A stretch of 32,000 bases of DNA. Origin: Nitratidesulfovibrio vulgaris str. Hildenborough. GTDB lineage: Bacteria > Desulfobacterota > Desulfovibrionia > Desulfovibrionales > Desulfovibrionaceae. The position numbers and the translations under genes are program-made. This document shows positions 1 through 31,230 of the stretch, one piece after another. The stretch covers positions 30,001-62,000 of the forward strand of contig NC_005863.1 of the NCBI RefSeq assembly GCF_000195755.1, read 5' to 3'. How positions within the stretch are numbered: the stretch's first letter is position 1; each line of letters opens with the position of its first letter. Under the pieces are notes generated by a model, which was given only the letters and a program-made list of their open reading frames with translations, had not been told where the DNA came from and ran no database searches.

Positions 1-1241
1 CATCTTGCCCGCCCGGTCATGCATTCCGTGATGGCCGACGTCGGTCGAACGGCGCGCGGGCGTGCGCCCCTGCCACGGGCGGCTGCTCTGCGGGAGCATT
101 CCGGCGTGGATGGTGGCGGGCAGGTGTTCGGCGAAGAGCATGTCGCCATCGCCAGCCACGGCGAGGGTGCAGTCGATGACGTTGACCAGTTCACGCACGT
201 TACCGGGCCACGGATGGGCGAGAAGCCTCGCCCTGAACTCCGCCGACATCTGCCAGACCTTGCCGCCGTTGGATTCGGCCCGCGACTGGAGCAGGTGTTC
301 GGCTATCTCGATGATGTCCAGACCGCGTTCGCGCAACGGCGGCAGCAGCACGCGCATGGTGCTGATGCGGTACAGCAGGTCGTCGCGGAACGTGCCCTCG
401 CGCACCATCTCCTGAAGGTCCTTGTTGGTGGCCGCCACCAGCCTGAAGTCGCTCGACTCTTCACTGCCGCCACCCACCGGGCGATAGCGCCTCTCCTGCA
501 ACACGCGCAGGAACTTCTTCTGGAGCGACATGGGCAGTTCGCTGACCTCATCGAGGAAGAGCGTGCCGCCGTCAGCCTGCCTGATGAGGCCCACCCGCGA
601 TTTGGCCGCCCCGGTGAACGCCCCCTGCGAGTAGCCGAAGAGCAGGCTCTCCACGAGGTGTTCGGGCAGCGAGGCGCAGTCCACGGTGATGAGCGGGCCG
701 CCCCGGCGCTGGCTCATGCGGTGGATGGCGCGGGCGAAGAGTTCCTTGCCCGTGCCCGTCTCGCCTTGCAGCAGCACGTTCACGTCGGCATTGGACGAGC
801 GGGCGATGGTCTCGAACTGGGCACGCAACGCGGCGGACTGCCGAAGATGCCGAAGTCGCGCAAGTCCGGCCCTTCGGCCCCGTTGCCGCCGAAGGAGGGC
901 AGCCGCTCGAGCAGCGTCGTGATGGCGCGCGGGGCCTTGCCCTTGGGCATGTAGTTGAGTGCGCCGCTCAGCAGGGCCGCCTTGCCACGCTCGGGGTTGT
1001 ACCGTTCGGCCACGACGACCACCTGCGGGGCCGCCTGTGTGGAGCGCAGCCTCGGGATGCCTTCGAGCGCGTTGTCCATGCCCTCTTCAAGGACGACAAG
1101 CTGGCACGACGACGCGCGGCAATGCCTGATGCCGTCCTCAAGCGATGAGACGACCTTGAGGCTATGCCCGCCATCGGCGAACAGGCGCGAAAGATGCATG
1201 TACAGATCAGGCTGGTGCCCGATGAGCAGTACGTTGGCCAT
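1..1241 (-). pseudogene. sigma-54-dependent response-regulator-type activator (NtrC/AtoC/PrsR-like enhancer-binding protein); reading frame broken near nt 836-842; C-terminal HTH lies beyond the window start
   Basis: ATG 1241 follows an AAGGAA RBS and opens a CheY-like receiver (MANVLLIGHQ...NYMPKG) that runs into a stop at 780. A different minus-strand frame, open from about 838 to nt 1, reads SAALRAQFETIARSSNADVNVLLQGETGTGKELFARAIH...GYSQGAFTGAAK...TLFLDEVSEL...WPGNVRELVNVI. These are the Walker A, GAFTGA loop, Walker B and sensor regions of sigma-54 AAA+ activators. The frames abut at GIFGS/SAAL, as if one nucleotide were missing. This frame is absent from the ORF track because it has no stop inside the window. 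Confidence 0.7.
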
Positions 1242-2117: not shown

Positions 2118-2477
2118 TCAATAGTCTTGCGGATAGTATCCCTGCTGCTTGTAGTCGCCTTGCTGGTAGTAGTTCTTCATGTCCTCGTAGCTATGCAGTA
2201 AAGGGCCGGAGAACGATACGCCAACCTCCTTGCCGTAGCTCCACACTACTGAATAGTAGTGGTCGTGCAGAAAAGCAGGCTTGTAGTATTCTTCCTTGAC
2301 CTTGCCGTAGCTGCCGTAGCGCATGTCAGGGTCGTAGTCGCCTTGCAGTTGCAGACGCGCCCCACCCTGACTGATGTCCAGAAGCCTTGCGTAGTACTCT
2401 TCGCCGTTTATCTGGACGCTGCAATCATAGGCATAACCCTTCAGGTCAAGCCTCTGGTAGTTTCTGCGTTCTTGCAT
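2118..2477 (-). CDS. single-domain PilZ protein (c-di-GMP receptor), extremely tyrosine-rich with a YYQQGDYKQQGYYPQDY tail
   Basis: ATG 2477 is preceded by GGAGG. Canonical PilZ motifs RRNYQR (RxxxR) and DISQGG (DxSxxG) are present at the correct spacing. The upstream 107 codons of the 226-aa track ORF (2118..2798) have no RBS and a junk-like composition. 119 aa, 20 of them Tyr (hand count). Confidence 0.8.
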   Translation of the reverse strand: MQERRNYQRLDLKGYAYDCSVQINGEEYYARLLDISQGGARLQLQGDYDPDMRYGSYGKVKEEYYKPAFLHDHYYSVVWSYGKEVGVSFSGPLLHSYEDMKNYYQQGDYKQQGYYPQDY

Positions 2478-2760: not shown

Positions 2761-2797
2761 TGTTGCCTTATCCGACAACCTGTTGCGTTTTCCGACA
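2761..2797 (+). promoter_or_regulatory. two direct copies (20-bp period) of the 17-bp element TGTTGC(C/G)TT(A/T)TCCGACA; candidate enhancer-binding-protein site pair
   Basis: 2761-2777 is TGTTGCCTTATCCGACA and 2781-2797 is TGTTGCGTTTTCCGACA. Each differs at one position from the copy at 6809-6825. They lie in the non-coding spacer between the PilZ gene (start 2477) and the sigma-54 promoter at 3255. Confidence 0.45.
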
Positions 2798-3254
2798 TCG
2801 CCAGACGCCATCAGGCTATGCTGCGCCATGCCACGCCTGACCGGCGCCTGTCCGACGCCTGTCCCGTCATGGGCCCTTGCCGGACTCGTAAGGGGCCCAT
2901 GGCAGACCCGACTCCGTGCCCGCTTCATGCCGATGGCGCGCGGCGTTTCGCCCCGCCGCACGTCGTGCATCTGCATGATGCCACCCGCGTTTACCGCCAC
3001 CCTCAACGGTCTTGCCGACGCCACGCCACGTCTCGTGTGGGCTACCTGCGTCCCTATGCACGTGTCGCGGGCATTCGTCCCTCGCACGTCTGCGGGCGAT
3101 GGCTATCGCACGGACATGGTGAGGCCGTGCGGCGGGTCGCGTCGGGGTGCGCGCCTGCCGCGCACGGTTGCACCCCGTACTTGTAAAGGACGCAATCGTG
3201 GATGTTTCAGGGCTTTTTCCCTGAACTGCCGTAGTTATTGAAGCTTTTATAATA

Positions 3255-3270
3255 TGGAGTGCTACTTGCA
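3255..3270 (+). promoter_or_regulatory. sigma-54 (-24/-12) promoter for the PEP-CTERM gene 3321..4022
   Basis: TGGAGTGCTACTTGCA has GG and GC separated by exactly 10 nt, as in the consensus TGGCAC-N5-TTGCW. It ends 51 nt upstream of ATG 3321. An inverted repeat GTGCGCG-N5-CGCGCAC at 3147-3165 lies about 100 nt upstream. Confidence 0.65.
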
Positions 3271-3320
3271 AAAAATGCGTGAATAAACGCATACCAGTTC
3301 CGTCACTTCAGGAGGTTCTT

Positions 3321-4022
3321 ATGCGAGTGGCACGTTTGGCAGCGGCTTTGGCTCTGGTTCTGGCATTGGCATCCATCGGCAACGCGGCGACGATGGAGAT
3401 CTTCGTGCGTCCGGAAGGGGACGCCGTGGGGGGGCAGGAACGCTATGGATACGGTTCCCCCTGGTATCAACTCGACCGTGATGCCACGGCGAACCCCAAC
3501 GCGGTCTATCACTGGTATTCTGATGGGAGCGGCGCGGCGCGGTGGACGTTCCTCCAGTTCGACCTCTCGGACCTTGCCGGCCTGGCTGACGCGGTGACCG
3601 GTGCGACGTTCAACTTCAATCTGCTGCCCGACGGCTGGGGAGAAGGCACACGCGGCAACCTCAATCACCTTTCCAATGCAGCCACGGCGAACGGACAGGC
3701 GACCCAGGGGCTTGGCGGCGACCAGCCTGTGGGCAGCGTGACGTCGGCCACGATCCTTGGCTGGAACCATTTCGACGTGACAGAGTACATCAAGGCCGAC
3801 CTCGCGGCGGGGTTCTCATGGTCGGTGTTCTCGTTCAATCAGGTGGGCTATGCGGGGATGTTCTTCAGCAGCGGCGAGACCGAAGAGCGCTCGTACCTGC
3901 AGGTCACCTACAACGGCGGCACCGTCGACCCCAACCTGCCCACGCCCGAACCTTCTTCGGTGGTGCTGATGCTGCTTGGCGCGGCGGGTCTTCTCGCCAT
4001 GCGTCGCAAGGGCGTCATGTAG
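3321..4022 (+). CDS. PEP-CTERM sorting-domain protein with a DNRLRE/CBM96-like N-terminal domain
   Basis: ATG 3321 follows GGAGG. Signal peptide MRVARLAAALALVLALASIGNA. C-terminus PTPEPSSVVLMLLGAAGLLAMRRKGVM has the PEP motif, a TM helix and a basic cluster. The core ARWTFLQFDLSDLAGL..VTGATFNFNL resembles DNRLRE-type domains (from memory, not searched). Confidence 0.9.
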   Translation: MRVARLAAALALVLALASIGNAATMEIFVRPEGDAVGGQERYGYGSPWYQLDRDATANPNAVYHWYSDGSGAARWTFLQFDLSDLAGLADAVTGATFNFNLLPDGWGEGTRGNLNHLSNAATANGQATQGLGGDQPVGSVTSATILGWNHFDVTEYIKADLAAGFSWSVFSFNQVGYAGMFFSSGETEERSYLQVTYNGGTVDPNLPTPEPSSVVLMLLGAAGLLAMRRKGVM

Positions 4023-4070
4023 CACGAGGCGTTGCCTCCATCGCATCCTACATCGTCTGACGGGGAAACA

Positions 4071-4106
4071 GGGGCGGTACACGCAGGTGTGCCGCCCCTT
4101 CCTGTC
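4071..4106 (+). terminator. stem-loop downstream of the PEP-CTERM gene (weak U-tract)
   Basis: GGGGCGGTACAC-GCAG-GTGTGCCGCCCC (4071-4098) forms a 12-bp stem with one G:U pair, followed by TTCCTGTC. It lies 49 nt after stop 4022. Confidence 0.5.
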
Positions 4107-4289
4107 GCTGCCGTGCGGCAGTGAGCGGCTTTGGCGGAGGGTTCGCCCGCTTCGGCAGGGCAGTGTGCACCGTCGGGCCGAACTTGCACACGCAGGCTCG
4201 TCGCCCCTTCCTGTGGCTGCATGCAGCCAGTGGGCGGTGTGCGCGGAGGTTCGCCCGCTTCGGCAGGGGGCAGTGTGCATCGTCGGGCC
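4079..4289. repeat. two tandem copies of a ~109-110-bp non-coding unit
   Basis: Unit A (4079-4179) and unit B (4188-4289) both run from ACACGCAGG to CGTCGGGCC. They share the blocks CGCCCCTTCCTGT(C/G)GCTGC and GGAGG(G)TTCGCCCGCTTCGGCAGGG(GG)CAGTGTGCA(C/T)CGTCGGGCC. Each unit has an internal palindrome at about the equivalent place but with a different sequence: CTGCCGTGCGGCAG at 4108-4121 and GGCTGCATGCAGCC at 4215-4228. Confidence 0.75.
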
Positions 4290-4644
4290 ACGTCCGGCAC
4301 ACTTCGTGTTCCGCCTTCTCCTCCGCTTCCGTGCAGGCAGCCAGCGAAGACCGTGGGCCGGTGCGATGCGGGGGCGCGCTGCACTCGCGCCCACTGTGGA
4401 CGGCCCTCTGGATGTCTCCCCCGTCTGTCGGGAGCGAGAGGTGGCGCGTCGTGCCGGGCCCTCTCGCCACAAGCTGCGCATGTCGGGCGGCAGATGCGTC
4501 GCGTGCCCCGTGTGGTGTGTCGGCCCGGGTTCGGCCCCTGTGCGGCCCCTGTTCGACCTGAAGGCGGCCATGCGGGCGGCATCCCGGTTGTGGGCGCAGG
4601 CGTCGTTCCACCCCATAGCCACTCCCTCGGTGTGCCTCCGTGCC

Positions 4645-4687
4645 CCGCACACGAAGAGGCCGACCTCCACGTGGTGAAGGCCGGCCT
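4645..4687 (-). terminator. stem-loop downstream of the minus-strand PEP-CTERM gene 4717..5583
   Basis: The minus strand reads AGGCCGGCCTTCAC-CAC-GTGGAGGTCGGCCT, a 14-bp stem including two G:U pairs (plus-strand 4657-4687), followed by CTTCGTGTG. It starts 30 nt after the stop codon at 4717-4719. Confidence 0.5.
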
Positions 4688-4716
4688 GTTGTATCGTCAG
4701 GAACGAAGAGACAGGA

Positions 4717-5583
4717 CTAGGCGGTGCGCCGTGCGCGCCGCATCATCATGCCCAGTCCGCCAAGACCCATCAGCATCAGCACTGCCGACGCCGGTTCGGG
4801 GGTGGGCAGGGCGGTGATGGAGAGCAGGGTCTGGTGGGTCGTGGTGACGCCCTCGCTGGTCAGCCAGCCCACGGCATCGGCCGGGAGGCCAAGCAGGGTG
4901 CGGTAGGCCAGCGGAATGGGCGAGAACGACTTGGTGAAGTCCATCACGTAGTCGATGCCGTAGAAGTGGAAGGTCTCCTGCGTGACTTCGGGGTTCATGA
5001 GCACGAACACGTCCTGCTGTGTGCTGCCGGTGTTCGGGGTCTCGAAGAACTTGAAGTCCAGCGTGGTGGAGAACACGGGCAGCGACGTCGCCCCCGGAAG
5101 CTGCGGGATGAGCTGCAGGATGGCGCGTGCCGTGCCACTTTGCAGGGTGATGCTGTCGCCGGCAATGGCCTTGTTGCTGTGAGACAGCACAAGTCCGTTC
5201 ACGGCTGCGCCACCCGTGATCAGGGTACCGCCCACAGTGGGGGCGATGGAGATGGAACTGGTGGTGGCGCCGTTGTGGAAGACGTAGCCACTGCGGTTCG
5301 AGTATGTGTAGTCGCCCCACCGGAGGGTCGAGAAGCCGGGGGTGGTGACGGGGGCGGGCAGCATGACCCCGCCGTCGAAGAGGTAGGTGAGGCTCTTGCT
5401 GCCGATACCGGTGATGCCGTTGTTGGGGTCACCGGGGACGTTGGTGTCGTTGCGCGAGTTGGTCCACTCAACGAAGGCCCCGTCCACAGTGTATGTCCAT
5501 GAGGGGACGACCGCCGCCGATGCCGCCGTCTGCAAGAGCAGCGGGAAGAGCAGCGTGAGTGCGATGAGTGCGAGGCGTTTCAT
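4717..5583 (-). CDS. PEP-CTERM sorting-domain protein, paralog A (possibly the THxN-type PEP-CTERM family)
   Basis: ATG 5583 follows AGGAG. Signal peptide MKRLALIALTLLFPLLLQTAASA. C-terminus LPTPEPASAVLMLMGLGGLGMMMRRARRTA. Alignable along its full length with 5708..6568 (LPVFSTxLDFxFFETPN, DVFVLxNPEVTxETFHFYGxDYV). An HxN motif is present (LSHSN). Confidence 0.9.
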   Translation of the reverse strand: MKRLALIALTLLFPLLLQTAASAAVVPSWTYTVDGAFVEWTNSRNDTNVPGDPNNGITGIGSKSLTYLFDGGVMLPAPVTTPGFSTLRWGDYTYSNRSGYVFHNGATTSSISIAPTVGGTLITGGAAVNGLVLSHSNKAIAGDSITLQSGTARAILQLIPQLPGATSLPVFSTTLDFKFFETPNTGSTQQDVFVLMNPEVTQETFHFYGIDYVMDFTKSFSPIPLAYRTLLGLPADAVGWLTSEGVTTTHQTLLSITALPTPEPASAVLMLMGLGGLGMMMRRARRTA

Positions 5584-5610
5584 GACGAGTCTCCTGTGTC
5601 TTGTAGCTGC

Positions 5611-5640
5611 TTGCAGGAGCCTTGGTGAAGGCTCCTGCAA
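5611..5640 (-). promoter_or_regulatory. perfect 11-bp-stem hairpin between the tandem PEP-CTERM paralogs (attenuator, partial terminator or processing site)
   Basis: TTGCAGGAGCC-TTGGTGAA-GGCTCCTGCAA. No U-tract follows on the minus strand. No sigma-54 promoter was found between the hairpin and ATG 5583. Confidence 0.5.
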
Positions 5641-5663
5641 GTGTGTGGTCGTATTCGGGGCGG

Positions 5664-5680
5664 TGTAAGGTTCTCCGACA
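5664..5680 (+). promoter_or_regulatory. degenerate copy of the 17-bp TGTnnn-N5-CCGACA element
   Basis: TGTAAGGTTCTCCGACA. Its extension TTCTCCGACAGG (5671-5682) nearly matches the 12-mer TTTTCCGACAGG at 6816-6827 and 11052-11063. It lies in the spacer between the two PEP-CTERM paralogs. Confidence 0.35.
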
Positions 5681-5707
5681 GGGGTCGCTGCCGGGGGGGG
5701 CGGTGCG

Positions 5708-6568
5708 TTATGCCTGTGACCGGCGGCGCAGTCCGAAGAGGCCGAGCAGTCCGAGGCCCATCAGGATGATGGAGGTCGGTTCGGGGGTGGGCAGGGCGCG
5801 GATGCTGATCAGCGTATCGAAGGCGTTGTAGGCGTTCTCGGAGGTGATCCAGCCGACGGAACCGACGGGCAGGTTCAGCAGGGCGCGGTAGGTTTCGGGG
5901 ATGAGGCCGAACGAGCCGCCGAAGCTGAACACGTAGTCGACGCCGTAGAAGTGGAAGGTCTCTTCGGTCACTTCGGGGTTCAGCAGTACGAACACGTCGC
6001 TCTCGGTGTTCACGTTGCCGTTGGGGGTCTCGAAGAACAGGAAGTCGAGCTTGGTCGAGAAGACGGGCAGCGGCGGGTTGCCGGAGGGGGCGAGCGTCAG
6101 CACCGAGCGCACGACGCCGGACTTAAGCTGGATGGAGCCGCTGAGGATGGGCTGGTTGTAGTGGTACAGTTCCATGCCAAGCGACGTGGGGCCGTCGGTG
6201 ATCATGGTGCCACTGCGGGCGTTGATGCCGATGGAGCTGAGGTTGGCGCCGGGAATCTGGCTGTATACGGGGCCGGGGCCGCTCCATACGTAGTCGCCCC
6301 ACGCGATATGGCGATAACCCTTGGCCGACGTGCCGGGAGGAACCGGAACACCGCCGTCGAGGTTGTAGAACAGTTCTTCAGGCTCGAAGCCGGTGATGCC
6401 CTGGGCAGGCGTGTCTAACGTGCCGCTTGTGCCCACGGTGGTCTTCCAGCTGACGAAGATGCCGTCAACGGTGTAGTCCCATGCGGGGATGGGGGCTGCC
6501 AGTGCGTTGACCACCATCAGGGCGGTCAGGACCACGGTACCGAGAAGGGAAGAGAGCAGACGCTTCAT
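5708..6568 (-). CDS. PEP-CTERM sorting-domain protein, paralog B
   Basis: ATG 6568 follows AGGAGAAAAACC. Signal peptide MKRLLSSLLGTVVLTALMVVNALA. C-terminus LPTPEPTSIILMGLGLLGLFGLRRRSQA. HxN motif LYHYN. Confidence 0.9.
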   Translation of the reverse strand: MKRLLSSLLGTVVLTALMVVNALAAPIPAWDYTVDGIFVSWKTTVGTSGTLDTPAQGITGFEPEELFYNLDGGVPVPPGTSAKGYRHIAWGDYVWSGPGPVYSQIPGANLSSIGINARSGTMITDGPTSLGMELYHYNQPILSGSIQLKSGVVRSVLTLAPSGNPPLPVFSTKLDFLFFETPNGNVNTESDVFVLLNPEVTEETFHFYGVDYVFSFGGSFGLIPETYRALLNLPVGSVGWITSENAYNAFDTLISIRALPTPEPTSIILMGLGLLGLFGLRRRSQA

Positions 6569-6626
6569 GGTTTTTCTCCTCATTTCATGAGGTTAAAAAT
6601 TGCGTGAGCAAAGTTGCATGGTATTA

Positions 6627-6642
6627 AGCAATGACTGTTCCA
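6627..6642 (-). promoter_or_regulatory. sigma-54 (-24/-12) promoter for PEP-CTERM paralog B
   Basis: The minus strand reads TGGAACAGTCATTGCT, with GG and GC separated by exactly 10 nt. It ends 59 nt upstream of ATG 6568. An AT-rich tract (6644-6700) lies between the promoter and the upstream 17-bp elements, which would suit DNA bending. Confidence 0.65.
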
Positions 6643-6719
6643 ACAGTGCTTTTAATATATATTCAAGTGTGTTGGATGATGTTTTGAGCCTTGATACCCC
6701 TCTCGGCACAGGCTGGCGT

Positions 6720-6736
6720 TGTCAACCTATCCGACA
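6720..6736 (+). promoter_or_regulatory. 17-bp TGTnnn-N5-CCGACA element, proximal site upstream of the 6627-6642 promoter
   Basis: TGTCAACCTATCCGACA, about 80-110 nt upstream of the -24 element on the minus strand. Confidence 0.4.
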
Positions 6737-6808
6737 GATTCGGGGGGCGGCGCGGGTGACCGGGGCGAAAGCGGCGCGGGCCTTCCATTCGCGCTGATGA
6801 AGGGGGGG

Positions 6809-6825
6809 TGTTGCCTTTTCCGACA
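6809..6825 (+). promoter_or_regulatory. 17-bp TGTnnn-N5-CCGACA element, distal site upstream of the 6627-6642 promoter
   Basis: TGTTGCCTTTTCCGACA matches the copies at 2761 and 2781 at 16 of 17 positions. The 12-mer TTTTCCGACAGG is identical to 11052-11063. Confidence 0.5.
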
Positions 6826-7253
6826 GGGTGCCGGAGAGCGTGCACGGGGACGCAGGAGGGGCCGCGGGTCTGGACACCACGTGAGAGGTGGGCGTCAGGT
6901 GAGAGGCAGGCTGAAGAAGGCGGGCGAAAGTGAAGGGGGGGGCGATGTGCCCCCCCGTGTCATTGCATGCGGCGTCTCCCGCGGCCATTCCCGTGGCGCC
7001 TCGCCTCGTGGCGTCCTGCGCCTTCCTGCGCCCTCCTGTGCAGTCCGGCGTTGTTTGGCACTGTCGGGGGCGTCCGGGGCCGACCTCGTTCCCGGTTGTC
7101 CGGGGCCTCTCCGCCTGACCGGGGCTTCTCGGCTGCCCCGTACTGCCCCGGTGTCCGCCTTGGTCGGGCTGTGGGGCCGTCCTGCGACGTCTTCGGCACA
7201 TCCGCCTCATGCACCGCCTTCGAGGCCATCCGCCGTCACGCGCCTTCTCGCCC

Positions 7254-10223
7254 TCACTCGGCAGGCAGCAGGAAGTCCGACAGCGGACGACGGAACGTGC
7301 CATGCCGGATGGGTGCGGCGACACCGGCACGGAACATCATGACGGGCAGTCGTCCCTTGGGGTGGGGCAGCACCTGTTCGAGAAGCGTCCACGCCTCTTC
7401 CAGCAGGCGCTGATGTGCGGTGTCCAGCGTCTGCGGGTCGCCCATGGCGAGGCGCAGGTGCAGCAGGGGCAGGGCCGCCAGCGGTTGCATGGCATAGCCC
7501 ATGTGTTCGAGGGCGCACCACGCCCGTTGCCACGCCATGCCCGCGCGGGCGATGTCCGTCTCCGTCTCGCCGTTGGCCAGCAGCAGCCCGATGCCGCCGC
7601 TTCGCAGCACGCCCATCGCCCCGTGCAGGGGCATGAGGCGCCCGAGGCCGAGGGCGTTGGCGATGCTCATGTTGCGCCACGGCCTCACGGCACGCAGGTA
7701 CAGTTCACCGGCGAGTCCCGCTTCGAGGTTCGCCAGCGGCAGTCCGTCGCCGTATGGCCCGTTCCCGGCGTGGCTGTGATGCCCTGCCTGCCCGGTGTGC
7801 CCCTGTTGCCCGACCTCTCCCTGTTGCTCGGCCTGCCCGTCGAAGCGGATGAAGCGCATGAGGTGTTCATGCATGTCGCGCCGTTCGACGCGCACCCTGT
7901 CGGCGAGGTAGACGGCCCGCGCAAGGGTCTTGCGCTGCGCCGCGTCCGTCGCCCACAGGAGGGTGGCGTCCTGTTCCTCGCTGACGAGGTGCTCGATGCG
8001 CTCGCACACCTCCACGGGCAGGGGGCGCGCGGCGTACATGCGGCGGTTGGTGTGCCTGCGCCACAGGGCGGCGGTCATGATCTCGTGCGAGGGCACGCCC
8101 AGCGGCGTGCAGTGCAGCGAGGCCACACGGTCGGGCTTCGTGGCGTCGGGAAAGAGCGAGAGCGTGGCATCGAGTCCCGCGCTGCCCGAGGCGTAGACGG
8201 CGTTCTGCACCGCGGCCCCGCAGGCCAGCAGCGAGGCCACATGGCGGTAGTCGAAGAACGAGCCGTCGGCCTGCCTGTCGAGATGGATGTGCAGCCCCGT
8301 GGCATGGGGGACGAAGCGCCACGGCTGCACGTTGTCGCCGGAGGGTGCCTGCATGGCGGCGCGGGCCACGTAGTGCAGGGTCTCGAGCGGGATGTCCTGC
8401 CGCAGTGCCACCACGTCGGGTTCTGGCGGGGGCGGCGTGCCGGTGCGCGGCGCACCCATGAAGAACCGGCGGGCGATGGCGAGCTTCAGCCGTTGCAGCG
8501 GCGAGCGCAGTCCCTTGCGGAGCCTGCCCCGCACATGACGGCCCGTGAGCGGGTCGAACTGCCTGAAGTACGGCACGGGGCGTATGCCCCGGCGGTGCAG
8601 CAGGATGCGCACGGCTTCGGTGGCGGCCATGCCCGCACAGAGATGGCAGGCGATGTCCAGCGACGGCCCCCGCCTGTCGTGCAGGCTGACGAAGCGCCTG
8701 TCCATGTAGCCGAGGTGCGCCGGGCGCGGGGCCAGCCCCATGCCGAAGCGCAGGTAGCCCTCCATGGGGGGCGTGTCGTCGTCGATGCCGAAGTAGCTGT
8801 CGAAGTTCATGCCCCCCGGCATGAAGACGAGCAGGGCGCACGAATAGCCGAGCGGCCCGGCGGTTATGACCGGAATGCCCAGTTCGAGCGCGCGGTTGAA
8901 GAGCCTGCGGCGGATGTCGAGGGCGAAGAAGTCGATGCCGTCCACCAGCAGGTCGACATCCTTGAGGAAGGCGTCGATGGTCTCGGCGGCGACGCCCTCG
9001 GGGAAGGAGCGGATGTCGAGGAACGGGTTCACGCTGAGGGCGCGTTCGGTCATGACGTCGAGCTTGCCGCGCCCGAAGCTGGCGATGCTGGCCCCGTACT
9101 GCCGGTTGAGGTTCACCGGCGAATAGGCGTCGAAGTCGGCGAGGTTGAAGTTGCCGATGCCCGTGCGCGCCAGCGTCATCAGATGGATGCCTCCCACGCC
9201 GCCAAGCCCCGCGATGGCGACCCGCGAGCGCAAGAGTCTGCGTTGTCCCGCGTAGTCCACGAGGCCGAGGTTGCGGCTGAAGGCGATGTCGGTATAGGCG
9301 TCGCGCGTCTCGAGTTTGAGCATGTCCAGCGGTACGCCGCCGGGGGTCTCGGGGTGCACCGGGTTGGTCGAGAAGTGGTTGAACACCGCGCGGTGGTAGA
9401 TGGTCTCGATGTGGTCGCGCTGGGGTTCGGCCAGATGGTCGAGCAGTTCGGGGCGCTGCTGCAACAGATAATAGGCGGTGTACGGTTCCAGTGGCCTGTC
9501 GCGGCGCACGGGGTTCTCGGAGGTCTCGGTCTCGTCGCTGTTCATGCGGGCGAAGAAGGCGAAGAGGTTGGTCTCGAAGTCCTCCTCGTCGCCGTACTTC
9601 TCCTGCAACTCGTCCATGGCCTCGTGCAGGTCGATGCGCAGGGCCACCGCCGGGGCGTCCACCGTGTCGTAGTGGCGCACCTCGCCGAAGGGTTTGAAAA
9701 GGAAGATGTCGGTGTAGAACTTCACATGCTTCGGGTTCACGGTGACGAGGATGTCGTCCACCTCCGACATCATGGAGTACTGGAACATGGCCTTGGCGAG
9801 AAAGACCATGAGGTTCGTCCACCGGCGGCTGTACTGCGTGGCAAGCGCGCCCACCTCCACCACGTTGCGCCCCTGGGCGCGCAGGGCGTCCACCTCGGGC
9901 TTGTAGAGGGTGTCCATGGGCAGGCCGAACAGCCCGGAGTCGGGGATGTGGGTCAGCGTGCACAGCACGTCGTGGTAGCTTTTGAAGATGAAGACCGAGG
10001 TGGCGGGCAGAATGCTCCAGACATTGTAATACATTCTTGATGGATGCGGCTTGAGATAGCCCGAGCGGATGTACTCTTCGTACACGAGGCGGAAGGCCCG
10101 TGTATACTCGTCGGGCGTTTCCGCGATCTTGATGGCGGGCCTGTCCAGCGCCCCCAGCTTGTTCTGCAGGAGCGAGGAACGCTTGATGCGGATGGTACGG
10201 CGCTTGTCGGCGATGGCGAGCAT
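7254..10223 (-). CDS. 989-aa three-domain protein: FeeM-like N-acyl amino acid synthase (GNAT-fold) + ThiF/MoeB-type E1-like adenylyltransferase + tandem nitroreductase-like module (Rv1355c-like C-terminal two-thirds)
   Basis: ATG 10223 with GAGG upstream. aa ~30-205 (nt ~9609-10136): FRLVYEEYIRSGYL...GLFGLPMD...VVEVGALAT...ILVTVNPKHVKFY, as in FeeM/autoinducer-synthase-like acyltransferases. aa ~315-545 (nt ~8589-9281): VAIAGLGGVGGIHLMTLARTGIGNFNLADFDAYSPVNLNRQ (ThiF glycine loop and NLNRQ). aa ~605-985 (nt ~7269-8411): AMQAPSGDNVQPWRF and LWRRHTNRRMY (nitroreductase-fold signatures in two halves). A Gln/Gly/His low-complexity insert lies at aa 796-826. Confidence 0.9.
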   Translation of the reverse strand: MLAIADKRRTIRIKRSSLLQNKLGALDRPAIKIAETPDEYTRAFRLVYEEYIRSGYLKPHPSRMYYNVWSILPATSVFIFKSYHDVLCTLTHIPDSGLFGLPMDTLYKPEVDALRAQGRNVVEVGALATQYSRRWTNLMVFLAKAMFQYSMMSEVDDILVTVNPKHVKFYTDIFLFKPFGEVRHYDTVDAPAVALRIDLHEAMDELQEKYGDEEDFETNLFAFFARMNSDETETSENPVRRDRPLEPYTAYYLLQQRPELLDHLAEPQRDHIETIYHRAVFNHFSTNPVHPETPGGVPLDMLKLETRDAYTDIAFSRNLGLVDYAGQRRLLRSRVAIAGLGGVGGIHLMTLARTGIGNFNLADFDAYSPVNLNRQYGASIASFGRGKLDVMTERALSVNPFLDIRSFPEGVAAETIDAFLKDVDLLVDGIDFFALDIRRRLFNRALELGIPVITAGPLGYSCALLVFMPGGMNFDSYFGIDDDTPPMEGYLRFGMGLAPRPAHLGYMDRRFVSLHDRRGPSLDIACHLCAGMAATEAVRILLHRRGIRPVPYFRQFDPLTGRHVRGRLRKGLRSPLQRLKLAIARRFFMGAPRTGTPPPPEPDVVALRQDIPLETLHYVARAAMQAPSGDNVQPWRFVPHATGLHIHLDRQADGSFFDYRHVASLLACGAAVQNAVYASGSAGLDATLSLFPDATKPDRVASLHCTPLGVPSHEIMTAALWRRHTNRRMYAARPLPVEVCERIEHLVSEEQDATLLWATDAAQRKTLARAVYLADRVRVERRDMHEHLMRFIRFDGQAEQQGEVGQQGHTGQAGHHSHAGNGPYGDGLPLANLEAGLAGELYLRAVRPWRNMSIANALGLGRLMPLHGAMGVLRSGGIGLLLANGETETDIARAGMAWQRAWCALEHMGYAMQPLAALPLLHLRLAMGDPQTLDTAHQRLLEEAWTLLEQVLPHPKGRLPVMMFRAGVAAPIRHGTFRRPLSDFLLPAE

Positions 10224-10270
10224 GGTGACCTCGCGGAGGATGCTTCACGGTTGGGCAGCGTACCGGGTGA

Positions 10271-10286
10271 AGCCAGTTTCGTGCCA
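10271..10286 (-). promoter_or_regulatory. sigma-54 (-24/-12) promoter for the three-domain enzyme gene
   Basis: The minus strand reads TGGCACGAAACTGGCT, with GG and GC separated by exactly 10 nt. It has the same TGGCAC...TGGCT style as the prsT promoter. It ends 48 nt upstream of ATG 10223. Confidence 0.65.
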
Positions 10287-10307
10287 GCAACGTCAAGTGC
10301 GAGGTTT

Positions 10308-10336
10308 TTCGACAGTAAGGTGTCGGAATGCCGACC
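10308..10336. promoter_or_regulatory. cluster of TGTCGG/CCGACA half-sites between two divergent sigma-54 promoters
   Basis: TTCGACA (10308-10314), 6 nt, TGTCGG (10321-10326), AATG, CCGACC (10331-10336). The half-sites match the 17-bp element, but the spacings (N6 and N4) differ from the N5 seen elsewhere. Confidence 0.45.
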
Positions 10337-10377
10337 TTCGATTTCTGTAACTAGCTGTTTTTGCTCAAGACGTTTTT

Positions 10378-10393
10378 TGGCATGAATGTGGCA
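10378..10393 (+). promoter_or_regulatory. sigma-54 (-24/-12) promoter upstream of the third PilZ gene
   Basis: TGGCATGAATGTGGCA has GG and GC separated by exactly 10 nt, with a TGGCA -12 element. It ends 117 nt upstream of GTG 10510. Confidence 0.5.
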
Positions 10394-10509
10394 AGTGCTG
10401 GCTTTATGAAGCGTCTTTAAGGTTTGTTGTCTCGAGTACGACCCAAGGCACATGCGAGACCTGCATCGAATGACCTGTACGGCCACTGGACGCGGATGGA
10501 GGTGCGGAG

Positions 10510-11073
10510 GTGAAGAATGTTGCAGTCGACACACAGGCTGGTGCACGTCTTGCCGATGTAGCACAATGCCTTGAATGCCAGCCGGGACATCTCGCTTCGG
10601 GCATTCTCAATTCATTTTTCGAATGCAATGCAGTACACGGCGATGCAACGACGTCTGAAAAGCGCAGGCTTGGCAGACGGGCGACGCACATTGCAGCCGT
10701 CACCTGCGCATGTGATGGCGAGAACGAGAGCAGGTGCACACCTGCCATCATCAGTAACATCTCCCTTTGCGGTGTGCGGGCCGAGGTACCGCATTCGTCA
10801 TCCGGCTATGGTAGCATCATGCGCAAGGTCGGTGCATTCGAACTGATGTTCACGTTTCCTTCAGAAGACGAAGTGGTGACGTTCAAGTGCCGCATGAAGT
10901 ATGTGCTCGACGGCGAGCGTACGGTGCTTGGCGGGGCCTTCGTAAGTCCTGATATCGTTTCGCTTCGTGCGCTGGTGCGCTTTCTGTTGTCACCGCAGGC
11001 CCGGCCCGAGTCGTCGCAAACGCCTTGTCGGACAGGCTTACAGGTGTCGGGTTTTCCGACAGGCACGGCCTAG
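10510..11073 (+). CDS. PilZ-domain protein (putative c-di-GMP receptor) with a Cys-containing N-terminal extension
   Basis: RRLGRR (RxxxR) and NISLCG (NxSxxG) are present at PilZ spacing, with a C-terminal LGGAFVSPD strand. GTG 10510 overlaps a GGAGG. The start is uncertain and the true N-terminus could be further downstream. Confidence 0.55.
   Translation: MKNVAVDTQAGARLADVAQCLECQPGHLASGILNSFFECNAVHGDATTSEKRRLGRRATHIAAVTCACDGENESRCTPAIISNISLCGVRAEVPHSSSGYGSIMRKVGAFELMFTFPSEDEVVTFKCRMKYVLDGERTVLGGAFVSPDIVSLRALVRFLLSPQARPESSQTPCRTGLQVSGFPTGTA
11026..11061. promoter_or_regulatory. two adjacent 17-bp elements, one a perfect palindrome; candidate upstream activating sequence for the prsT-eps operon promoter
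   Basis: 11026-11042 is TGTCGGACAGGCTTACA (right half degenerate). 11045-11061 is TGTCGGGTTTTCCGACA (perfect 6-N5-6 inverted repeat). Centres are 19 nt apart. They lie about 210-245 nt upstream of the sigma-54 promoter at 11270 and overlap the 3' end of the PilZ ORF. Confidence 0.55.
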
Positions 11074-11269
11074 GGGCCGCACGAAGCCCCCCATCCGTCC
11101 TTCATGTGCCGTTCGTGTATACAACCCGTCCGTGAAATCAGGACGCCCGTCCCGTTTATCATGCGTGTCCTGATAAGCCGGACGGTTCAGGGGGGCTGCA
11201 AGACTCTAGACATTCTGTAACGTGTCTTCTTTGCACGCGTGGACGCGCCGGGGCCGAAGCCTCTGCGTG

Positions 11270-11285
11270 TGGCACGGTATTGGCT
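11270..11285 (+). promoter_or_regulatory. sigma-54 (-24/-12) promoter of the prsT-exopolysaccharide operon
   Basis: TGGCACGGTATTGGCT has a perfect TGGCAC -24 element and GG and GC separated by exactly 10 nt. It ends 41 nt upstream of GTG 11326, with RBS ACGGAGG at 11314-11320. Confidence 0.75.
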
Positions 11286-11325
11286 CTATACGGGGGAACA
11301 TCCGGCCCGAACAACGGAGGTTCCC

Positions 11326-29760: not shown

Positions 29761-31230
29761 ATGGGCACGTCCGGCTACTTCGCACGCAATTCCGTCATCC
29801 GCATCGTGTCGTTCGCGGTGGGGGTGGGGTTCGCCCTGTTCGTGACCCCGGTGGTGGTGGGCACGCTGGGCAAGACGAACTATGGCGTGTGGGTGCTGGT
29901 CAGTTCCGTGGCCTGCTACTTCCTGCTGCTCGAGGGCGGCGTGATGCAGGCCGTGTCGCGCCATGCGGCTGCGGCCCTTGCGCGTGACGACCGGCACGAG
30001 GTCGACCGGGTGTGCACGGCGGGCTTCGCCCTCCATGCGCTGTCGTGCTGTCTGGCCCTGTGCGTGACCGGGGGGCTTGCGCTGTTCGCCGGTGTCTTCG
30101 CCTCCGACCAGCTGCCCGTGGAGAGGCTGCGCCAGTGCCTTGTCATCTACAGCGTGTGCCTCTCGCTGTTCTTCCTGTTCAGGACGCACACCGGGCTGCT
30201 CATGGCCGAGATGCGCTGGACGCTCATCGCCGTGCTGGCCATGCTGCGCAGCGCGTTCACCAGCCTTGCGGTGCTGCTCATGATCACGCCGGAGAACGGC
30301 CTGTGGCTGCTGGCGGCGGTCAACGGCGGGGGCTTTCTGCTCGAAGGCGCGGCCTGCCTGCTCTTCGCACGGCGCAGCGGGAGGGGGCGCGTGCGTGTGG
30401 CACTCTTCGACGCCGCCCTCGCGCGTGAGCTTCTCGGCTACGGCTGGGCCTTCACCGTGACGCAACTGGGCGAGTCGATGCGCTACCGGTCGCAGAACTA
30501 CATCATCGCGCTGTTCTCGGGCGTGCGCGAGGTGGCCGTGTTCTCCATCGCCATGCAGTTCATCGGCTACTTCCTGAGCCTCATGCAGAGCGCCTTCGGC
30601 ATCATGGTGCCGTACTTCAGCCGGATGCAGGCCCGCGGCGACCGGGACGACACCGCGGGTTCGCTGCTCTTCGCCCTGCGGCTGAGCTATGTGACGGCCT
30701 CGTTCATCGGGCTGTGCCTCATCTTCTACGGGCAGGAGTTCATCGTGCTGTGGCTCGGCCCCGGATTCGCCGAAGCCCACGACGCCCTCGTGCCGCTGAC
30801 CCTCGGGGCCGTGTTCTCGCTGGGGATGCTGCCCGCAGACGGCTACCTGCTGGGGACGGCCCGTCACCGGATGCTGGCCCGCTGCGCCATGGCGGAGGGC
30901 GTCAGCATCGTACTGCTCTCGCTGGCGCTGGCGGGGCCCTTCGGCATGGAGGGCGTGGCATGGGCCTATTGCGGCGTGGCCCTCGTCTTTCGCGCCGGGG
31001 TGGTGCCGTGGTTCGTCTTCACGCAGGCGGGGCTTCCCCTTCTGGCCTACGCGCGCCTGCTGGCGGAGGTGGCGGTCACGCATGTGGCCCCGCAGGTGCT
31101 CCTGTACCTGATCATGCGGGGAACGCTCGGTACGGGCTACCTGCAACTGGCCCTTCTTGCGGGAATGCAGGGCGTGCTTGCCGTGGGCATCCAGTCATCC
31201 CTCCTGCGGTTCACGCGGGGTGCGGCCTGA
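29761..31230 (+). CDS. polysaccharide flippase (Wzx-like, MOP superfamily)
   Basis: ATG 29761 lies 3 nt after the upstream stop. About 489 aa, hydrophobic throughout (at least 10 predicted TM segments by eye). The N-terminus ARNSVIRIVSFAVGVGFALFVTPVVVGTLGKTNYGVWVLVSS is typical of Wzx/PST proteins. Confidence 0.8.
   Translation: MGTSGYFARNSVIRIVSFAVGVGFALFVTPVVVGTLGKTNYGVWVLVSSVACYFLLLEGGVMQAVSRHAAAALARDDRHEVDRVCTAGFALHALSCCLALCVTGGLALFAGVFASDQLPVERLRQCLVIYSVCLSLFFLFRTHTGLLMAEMRWTLIAVLAMLRSAFTSLAVLLMITPENGLWLLAAVNGGGFLLEGAACLLFARRSGRGRVRVALFDAALARELLGYGWAFTVTQLGESMRYRSQNYIIALFSGVREVAVFSIAMQFIGYFLSLMQSAFGIMVPYFSRMQARGDRDDTAGSLLFALRLSYVTASFIGLCLIFYGQEFIVLWLGPGFAEAHDALVPLTLGAVFSLGMLPADGYLLGTARHRMLARCAMAEGVSIVLLSLALAGPFGMEGVAWAYCGVALVFRAGVVPWFVFTQAGLPLLAYARLLAEVAVTHVAPQVLLYLIMRGTLGTGYLQLALLAGMQGVLAVGIQSSLLRFTRGAA

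Follow-up and report, generated by a model that had tools for sequence, protein, structure and literature searches.

The 32,000-nt stretch analyzed here (the window) comprises positions 30,001 to 62,000 of contig NC_005863.1 from Nitratidesulfovibrio vulgaris str. Hildenborough (D. vulgaris in the literature cited below) and differs from plasmid pDEVAL01 of N. vulgaris RCH1 by one mismatch and one gap over 32 kb. Between positions 2761 and 11061, it carries seven copies of a 17-bp imperfect palindrome, the neighbors of which encode three PEP-CTERM proteins and PrsT, the TPR lipoprotein of the PEP-CTERM system. These 17-mers are the published predicted sites of PrsR (DVUA0057) and as such are already known, not new. 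Taken together, the evidence makes it very probable that they are enhancer sites (upstream activating sequences) of this regulator on the D. vulgaris megaplasmid. The boxes, promoters and genes concerned are as follows; all sigma-54 bit scores were obtained with a promoter matrix from which the promoters of the window were excluded.

2118..2477, minus strand: DVUA0029, PilZ-domain protein (Pfam PilZ, E=6.9e-13), divergent from DVUA0030, with which it shares the 2761/2781 boxes
2761..2777: predicted PrsR box TGTTGCCTTATCCGACA, first of two, in the spacer from which DVUA0029 (PilZ) and DVUA0030 diverge; 15.0 bits
2781..2797: predicted PrsR box TGTTGCGTTTTCCGACA, second of the 2761/2781 pair; 15.5 bits
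3253..3271, plus strand: sigma-54 promoter of DVUA0030, TATGGAGTGCTACTTGCAA; 18.8 bits
3321..4022, plus strand: DVUA0030, PEP-CTERM protein (domain matches and RCH1 annotation), target gene
4717..5583, minus strand: DVUA0031, THxN-family PEP-CTERM protein (NF038125, 138 bits against a cut-off of 85)
5664..5680: predicted PrsR box, TGTCGGAGAACCTTACA on the minus strand, in the 124-nt spacer of tandem DVUA0032/DVUA0031; 18.5 bits
5708..6568, minus strand: DVUA0032, THxN-family PEP-CTERM protein (NF038125, 140.6 bits against a cut-off of 85)
6626..6644, minus strand: sigma-54 promoter of DVUA0032-DVUA0031, GTTGGAACAGTCATTGCTT; 20.2 bits, the best promoter-matrix match in the window
6720..6736: predicted PrsR box TGTCAACCTATCCGACA, 75 nt upstream of the DVUA0032 promoter; 19.5 bits
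6809..6825: predicted PrsR box TGTTGCCTTTTCCGACA, 164 nt upstream of the DVUA0032 promoter; 14.8 bits
11026..11042: predicted PrsR box TGTCGGACAGGCTTACA, first of a pair upstream of prsT; 15.4 bits
11045..11061: predicted PrsR box TGTCGGGTTTTCCGACA, half-sites perfectly palindromic; 21.9 bits, the top match of the window
11268..11286, plus strand: sigma-54 promoter of prsT (DVUA0036-DVUA0041), TGTGGCACGGTATTGGCTC; 15.9 bits
11326..13986, plus strand: prsT (DVUA0036), PEP-CTERM system TPR lipoprotein (TIGR02917, 437 bits against a cut-off of 312.2)

The prsT gene is the first of an XrtA-type exopolysaccharide (EPS) operon. As judged from the RCH1 plasmid, the exosortase, PrsR and PrsK are encoded beyond the right end of the window, PrsR (63244-64674 in RCH1 coordinates) lying ∼6.7 kb past the edge and PrsK at 77439-79475. 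The RCH1 proteins score 585 bits with TIGR02915 against a cut-off of 502.6 (PrsR) and 407 against 300 (PrsK). Thus, PrsR, PrsK and PrsT are each above their NCBIfam cut-offs and are encoded in one gene cluster.

Occurrence, arrangement and conservation of the boxes

The frequency of the motif was compared with that in 100 dinucleotide-preserving shuffles of the window. The pattern TGT-N8-CCGACA gave eight strand matches window-wide, corresponding to seven distinct sites (2761, 2781, 5664, 6720, 6809, 11026 on the minus strand, and the palindrome at 11045), all of them within 2761-11061. The shuffles contained a mean of 0.30 and a maximum of two matches, and 0/100 reached eight. The looser pattern TGT-N11-ACA recovered the identical seven places and none further. 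Given that the hexamer CCGACA alone was only mildly enriched (35 observed versus 25 expected), the signal resides in the 17-mer. The consensus of the box is TGTCGG-N5-YYKACA, an imperfect palindrome with half-sites approximately one helical turn apart, and all seven sites have the 17-nt form TGT-N11-ACA, in which the 3′ half is YYKACA (TTTACA-type).

A reading of this DNA made from its letters alone (the sequence-only reading) had proposed a recurring 17-bp quasi-palindrome in these positions. The motif is real, and all of the sequences then quoted are correct. Also as described there, the 12-mer TTTTCCGACAGG has two exact occurrences, at 6816 and 11052, and two loci carry paired sites, with start-to-start spacings of 20 bp (2761/2781) and 19 bp (11026/11045). 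The claim that three copies match each other at 16 of 17 positions requires correction in one respect: for the three TGTTGC-type copies, the pairwise values are 16/17, 16/17 and 15/17, the lowest being that of 2761 with 2781. The same reading had placed the sites mostly 80-250 nt upstream of sigma-54 promoters. This was borne out for four of them, two lying 75 and 164 nt from the DVUA0032 promoter and two lying 206 and 225 nt from that of prsT. It failed for the 2761/2781 pair, which lies 455-475 nt from the DVUA0030 promoter, and for the 5664 box, which has no recognizable promoter of its own.

Six sites were counted as intergenic, and the 11026/11045 pair lies inside the last 48 nt of the annotated open reading frame (ORF) at 10510-11073. 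The 2761/2781 pair is nearer to divergent DVUA0029 than to DVUA0030. Here, a sigma-54-like sequence before DVUA0029 (2570-2588), with GTGCAC instead of TGGCAC, scored 9.1 bits only and was not counted. Two TGTAA half-sites, at 3183 and 11226, would suit the short spacer reported for PEP-CTERM genes (see below); these are lone half-sites below the matrix threshold and were dropped. Halfway along the stretch from the prsT boxes to the promoter of that gene lies a block, GTCCCGTTTATCATGCG (11149-11165), that is kept in N. liaohensis and sits where a site for IHF or another bending site would be expected. The weaker half, TGTTGC, of boxes 2761, 2781 and 6809 is identical to the half-site tabulated for DVU3305 (TGTTGCA-N3-TGCAACA; Kazakov et al. 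2015), and these three boxes look as if a DVU3305 half had been joined to a PrsR half, a resemblance that could be due to chance.

For an assessment independent of the window, a symmetric weight matrix was built from 22 published sites lying outside it (in other species, on the chromosome and at DVUA0089). With this matrix, the seven boxes were the top seven matches of the 32 kb, at 14.8-21.9 bits, and the next match scored 12.1. The scan was extended to the whole 202-kb RCH1 plasmid, assembled from six pieces, with the matrix also built without the DVUA0089 site. Nine matches of at least 14.5 bits were obtained, compared with 0.93 expected, and consisted of the seven boxes of the window and two that flank DVUA0089, the fourth PEP-CTERM gene of the plasmid. 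Strong matches over the 202 kb are therefore confined to the neighborhoods of PEP-CTERM genes and prsT. On the scale of the plasmid, the motif thus withstands the refutation set out in the sequence-only reading, namely a spread without any link to PEP-CTERM genes or RpoN promoters. Our own scan was at plasmid scale; the distribution on the chromosome was taken from the whole-genome search of Kazakov et al. (PMC4641369). One of the two boxes at DVUA0089, TGTCAGGAATACCGACA (20.9 bits; L004:35904-35920, RCH1 plasmid 115803-115819), lies 43 bp downstream of the DVUA0089 stop codon and ∼450 bp upstream of an operon for an ABC-binding protein, a PAS kinase and an HD-GYP protein, and is absent from the site list of those authors.

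The orthologous spacers were compared in relatives. A contig search with the two THxN paralogues returned one locus, from N. liaohensis (L007), with a THxN protein 70% identical. In N. liaohensis and in a metagenomic contig from a relative (L009), every box position is kept, with 13-16/17 nucleotides identical compared with ∼40-50% identity in the flanks, such that the boxes form conserved islands. N. liaohensis has the prsT box pair, the box in the spacer of the tandem genes and, ahead of the first THxN gene, two boxes spaced by ∼87 bp. The counterparts of boxes 6720 and 6809 each keep 16/17 positions in a diverged spacer, and both the -24/-12 elements of the DVUA0032 promoter and the prsT promoter are kept. 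The layout is the same in L009, the prsT box pair included.

Published sites and the identity of the binding protein

In Kazakov et al. 2015 (BMC Genomics 16:919, PMC4641369), Additional file 4 lists all seven 17-mers verbatim as predicted DVUA0057 (PrsR) sites. The entries correspond to the window as follows.

DVUA0030, -560: TGTTGCCTTATCCGACA, window 2761
DVUA0030, -540: TGTTGCGTTTTCCGACA, window 2781
DVUA0031, -97: TGTCGGAGAACCTTACA, window 5664
DVUA0032, -168: TGTCGGATAGGTTGACA, window 6720
DVUA0032, -257: TGTCGGAAAAGGCAACA, window 6809
DVUA0036, -213: TGTCGGACAGGCTTACA, window 11026
DVUA0036, -194: TGTCGGGTTTTCCGACA, window 11045

With start codons at 3321, 5583, 6568 and 11239, all of these offsets were reproduced exactly (for example, 3321-2761=560 and 6825-6568=257). 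Additional file 6 of the same study gives the same three sigma-54 promoters, TATGGAGTGCTACTTGCAA at -68, GTTGGAACAGTCATTGCTT at -76 and TGTGGCACGGTATTGGCTC at +29, which map to window positions 3253, 6644 (minus strand) and 11268, respectively, the value of +29 being counted from the old DVUA0036 start at 11239.

Binding was reported by Rajeev et al. 2011 (Genome Biol 12:R99, PMC3333781), who located DVUA0057 peaks on pDV1 by DNA-affinity-purified-chip (DAP-chip) analysis. One offset, 29935-29981, puts all four peaks over their boxes, and an independent pDV1 coordinate inside DVUA0034 is consistent with it. The peaks are assigned as follows: 32608-32837 to the 2761/2781 pair, 35556-35785 to 5664, 36644-36717 to 6720, and 40961-41384 to 11026/11045. 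In the same study, a fragment from upstream of DVUA0089 was shifted by DVUA0057 in an electrophoretic mobility shift assay (EMSA), as the positive target tested (supplement), and the target table (Table S5) gives DVUA0029-0032, DVUA0036 and DVUA0089 for DVUA0057, with DVUA0029 as a possible target. Thus, binding of PrsR to the box-containing regions in vitro has been shown by DAP-chip. Between the regulon described in these two papers and the arrangement found here, there is no difference in the seven sequences, their offsets, the genes, the three sigma-54 promoters or the regulator.

The first description of the motif is that of Haft et al. 2006 (PMC1569441), who found, upstream of the sigma-54 “motif 2” that precedes PEP-CTERM genes, a 17-nt “motif 1” with a 3′ end of TTTACA and, in some cases, more than one copy. 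It was present in all 13 PrsR-bearing proteobacteria studied, D. vulgaris Hildenborough included, and PrsR, PrsK and PrsT were discovered through its phylogenetic profile. The boxes of the window share with motif 1 the length of 17 nt, the occasional repetition, the position upstream of a -24/-12 motif in long non-coding regions before PEP-CTERM genes, and the co-occurrence with PrsR, PrsK and PrsT. They differ at the 3′ end, TTTACA in motif 1 (compared by its text description), whereas the strong half of the window boxes is CCGACA or CTTACA. The spacers also differ: motif 1 and motif 2 were separated by 63 ± 11 nt (range 32-92), and the gaps in the window are 75, 206 and 455 nt, of which that of DVUA0032 falls inside the published range and those of prsT and DVUA0030 fall outside. 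Motif 1 is the “PEP-CTERM box” that the sequence-only reading named without giving its sequence. The proposal made there, of NtrC-family activating sites of the PEP-CTERM-box type feeding sigma-54 promoters, is upheld by the published DVUA0057 sites, the DAP-chip peaks, and the length and 3′ half shared with motif 1.

Several points weigh against the assignment of the boxes to PrsR. A site-level experiment on these boxes was not found in the searchable literature. According to Rajeev et al. (PMC3333781), no motif had been validated for DVUA0057 or DVU0110; the EMSA of Kazakov et al. (PMC4641369) covered DVU2956 only; and a 2023 Aquincola paper still refers to a “previously predicted enhancer sequence.” The gaps of 206-225 nt (prsT) and 455-475 nt (DVUA0030) exceed the 32-92 nt of Haft et al. 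Neither in the window nor in N. liaohensis did pattern or matrix reveal a sigma-54 promoter for box 5664 between that box and the DVUA0031 start. Nor does any part of the window match the IHF consensus WATCARNNNNTTR, which leaves no basis for placing an IHF site between boxes and promoters. Finally, Kazakov et al. predicted a single motif that DVU0110 and DVUA0057 have in common, so that either protein may be the occupant in vivo.

The common motif also favors the strongest alternative, in which the chromosomal paralogue DVU0110 would occupy the boxes in vivo, beside PrsR or instead of it, and the boxes would be a node shared by two two-component systems. Both regulators bound upstream of DVU0132, and their recognition-helix regions are similar, with 8/14 residues in common. 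However, the table of Rajeev et al. (PMC3333781) places DVUA0029-0032, DVUA0036 and DVUA0089 under DVUA0057 only, and the listed DVU0110 sites are all of the TGTAAA...GCTGACA type, none being TGTCGG...CCGACA. Occupation by DVU0110, beside PrsR or instead of it, is considered unlikely.

A second candidate lies in the window itself.

1..1241, minus strand: DVUA0025/DVUA0024, non-PrsR pseudogene with receiver and sigma-54 AAA+ domains, its helix-turn-helix (HTH) lying past the window edge

Of the sigma-54 activator genes, this one is closest to the boxes, at 1.5 kb from the first; sister strains RCH1 and DP4 carry an intact copy, and it has no known regulon, all of which would recommend its product as the protein that binds the boxes. 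In the present sequence, however, it is frameshifted: a 1-nt deletion at 836/837 splits it relative to RCH1 (GGCGG-ACTG versus GGCGGAACTG), and the same lesion was described as Hildenborough-specific by Kazakov et al. (PMC4641369), which points to pDV1 of that strain as the most likely source of the window. The intact RCH1 protein scores 270 bits with TIGR02915 against the cut-off of 502.6, no better than with RtcR, AtoC or NifA. Its HTH recognition region, GITRATLHNKLKKY, agrees with that of DVUA0057, NLSRTRLYELLRKH, at 4/14 residues, and the DAP-chip data assign the box regions to DVUA0057. Binding by this activator is thus highly improbable, and the attribution of the boxes to a “local” enhancer-binding protein in the sequence-only reading falls if an activator within the window was meant. 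The receiver domain of DVUA0025/DVUA0024 carries E at the expected phospho-accepting D (LVVLEEGM).

The idea that the 17-mer is the core of a dispersed repetitive extragenic palindrome or miniature inverted-repeat transposable element without a regulatory role, to which a short, GC-containing near-palindrome recurring in intergenic DNA might lend itself, is ruled out by the plasmid distribution, by the conservation of the boxes in N. liaohensis while the surrounding spacers diverge, by the unrelated flanks (30 nt on each side, 26% identical, which is the random level, versus 77% for the cores) and by the in vitro binding of a transcription factor to the box regions. Given that the flanks are unrelated while the cores are alike, each box is a short site of its own, as opposed to a piece of some longer repeat.

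The DVUA0034-DVUA0035 spacer and other features of the locus

A possible extension of the PrsR/sigma-54 regulon concerns the following features, which lie between the THxN genes and prsT.

7254..10223, minus strand: DVUA0034, FeeM-ThiF-nitroreductase fusion (NCBIfam PRK14852)
10270..10288, minus strand: candidate sigma-54-like promoter GCTGGCACGAAACTGGCTT, 47 nt upstream of DVUA0034; 11.4 bits
10298..10314: candidate degenerate box TGCGAGGTTTTTCGACA; ∼12 bits
10376..10394, plus strand: candidate sigma-54-like promoter TTTGGCATGAATGTGGCAA, 116 nt upstream of DVUA0035; 10.4 bits
10510..11073, plus strand: DVUA0035, small PilZ-like ORF

The 286-bp spacer at 10224-10509 contains divergent promoter-like sequences, TGGCACGAAACTGGCT toward DVUA0034 and TGGCATGAATGTGGCA toward DVUA0035, with TGCGAGGTTTTTCGACA between them. 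The half-site cluster noted previously at 10308-10336 exists, and TGCGAGGTTTTTCGACA, its best 17-mer, is weak in comparison with the seven boxes (∼12 versus 14.8-21.9 bits). All three elements within 10270-10394 show little or no change in N. liaohensis and in L009 (DVUA0034 homologue 65% identical), in contrast to the diverged remainder of the spacer. In contig L012, with a DVUA0034 homologue 51% identical, a canonical box pair 19 bp apart (L012:4757-4792) lies in the 296-bp spacer that immediately precedes this gene. A promoter picked by hand in L012, TGGCATGGAAATAGCT, scored <9 bits with the promoter matrix and was rejected.

These observations raise the possibility that the PrsR/sigma-54 regulon is larger than published and takes in the 10224-10509 spacer, a proposal that is put forward tentatively and is more doubtful than otherwise. 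Against it, promoter scores such as these (11.4 and 10.4 bits) are expected by chance in 32 kb, the box is 9 nt from the promoter-like 19-mer of DVUA0034 (12 nt from its TGGCAC core), and no DVUA0057 DAP-chip peak was reported at 10270-10394 by Rajeev et al. 2011 (PMC3333781). The three elements do not appear in the published site and promoter lists; the published regulon lacks them, as it lacks the strong box 43 bp downstream of DVUA0089. DVUA0034 has already been linked to biofilm phenotypes. If the proposal were true, PrsR would co-regulate an uncharacterized three-domain enzyme with the PEP-CTERM proteins.

Full-length homologues of DVUA0034 recur in metagenomic contigs (L009-L014) beside PEP-CTERM genes and PrsR-type boxes, which suggests that the FeeM-ThiF-nitroreductase enzyme belongs to PEP-CTERM/PrsR neighborhoods. 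Among plasmids, a tblastn search with DVUA0034 gave full-length matches in three D. vulgaris plasmids only.

Three small ORFs of PilZ or PilZ-like character (1545-1997, 2118-2477 and 10510-11073) are interleaved with the PEP-CTERM genes. The Pfam PilZ model is passed by 2118-2477 only, the other two being PilZ-like by eye, and the interleaving hints at an input of cyclic di-GMP to the locus. Just downstream of the 5664 box, between DVUA0032 and DVUA0031, the minus-strand transcript can form a strong hairpin at 5610-5641 with a 14-bp stem (-26.8 kcal/mol, z = -3.9). It is kept in N. liaohensis, with a compensatory stem change from TT/AA to CT/AG and a different loop. Given that no T-run follows, the hairpin is not a canonical terminator; it may be an element of mRNA processing or stability. 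Where DVUA0030 and DVUA0031 converge, the GC-rich spacer separating their 3′ ends holds a tandem duplication of ∼109 bp (4079-4289), the segments of which are 74-100% identical. An Rfam search of the window gave no match.

Proposed mode of action and significance

Upstream activating sequences of the NtrC/NifA type, through which sigma-54 activators work, belong to the TGT-N10/11-ACA class. By analogy, the PrsR boxes would share with them the TGT...ACA dyad, the pairing at approximately two helical turns and the action at a distance on -24/-12 promoters, and would differ in the inner bases of the half-sites, which probably set the specificity of PrsR. Several other D. vulgaris activators have their own TGT-N11-ACA variants, for example TGTTGC...GCAACA for DVU3305 and TGTATA...TATACA for DVU3381 (PMC4641369).

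The following mode of action can be proposed for PrsR, in which the binding of one dimer per box, the phosphorylation by PrsK, the oligomerization and the looping are all inferred from NtrC-family activators in general. Each 17-mer would bind a PrsR dimer through the C-terminal Fis-type HTH. Phosphorylation of PrsR by PrsK would then lead dimers on neighboring boxes, arranged as pairs 19-20 bp apart or as two boxes ∼89 bp apart, to assemble an active AAA+ oligomer. By looping of the DNA, this oligomer would reach the sigma-54 holoenzyme, present as a closed complex on the -24/-12 promoters of DVUA0030, DVUA0032-DVUA0031 and prsT (DVUA0036-DVUA0041), and would use ATP to achieve promoter opening. 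The predicted outcome is co-expression of PEP-CTERM surface proteins with the operon for EPS export and biosynthesis. The anatomy of the locus fits such a mechanism in part, namely in the 19-20-bp pairs and in the distances (75 and 164 nt) that separate two of the boxes from the DVUA0032 promoter.

A survey of the searchable literature found neither base-level binding of PrsR to the 17-mer nor a separation of PrsR from DVU0110 at these sites. PEP-CTERM/exosortase systems, of which PrsK and PrsR are the dedicated switch, drive the formation of flocs and biofilms, both in bacteria of the environment and of wastewater and in sulfate reducers that cause corrosion. Although they contribute nothing beyond Haft et al. 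2006, Rajeev et al. 2011 and Kazakov et al. 2015, the sites of the window constitute the best-mapped example of PrsR enhancers.

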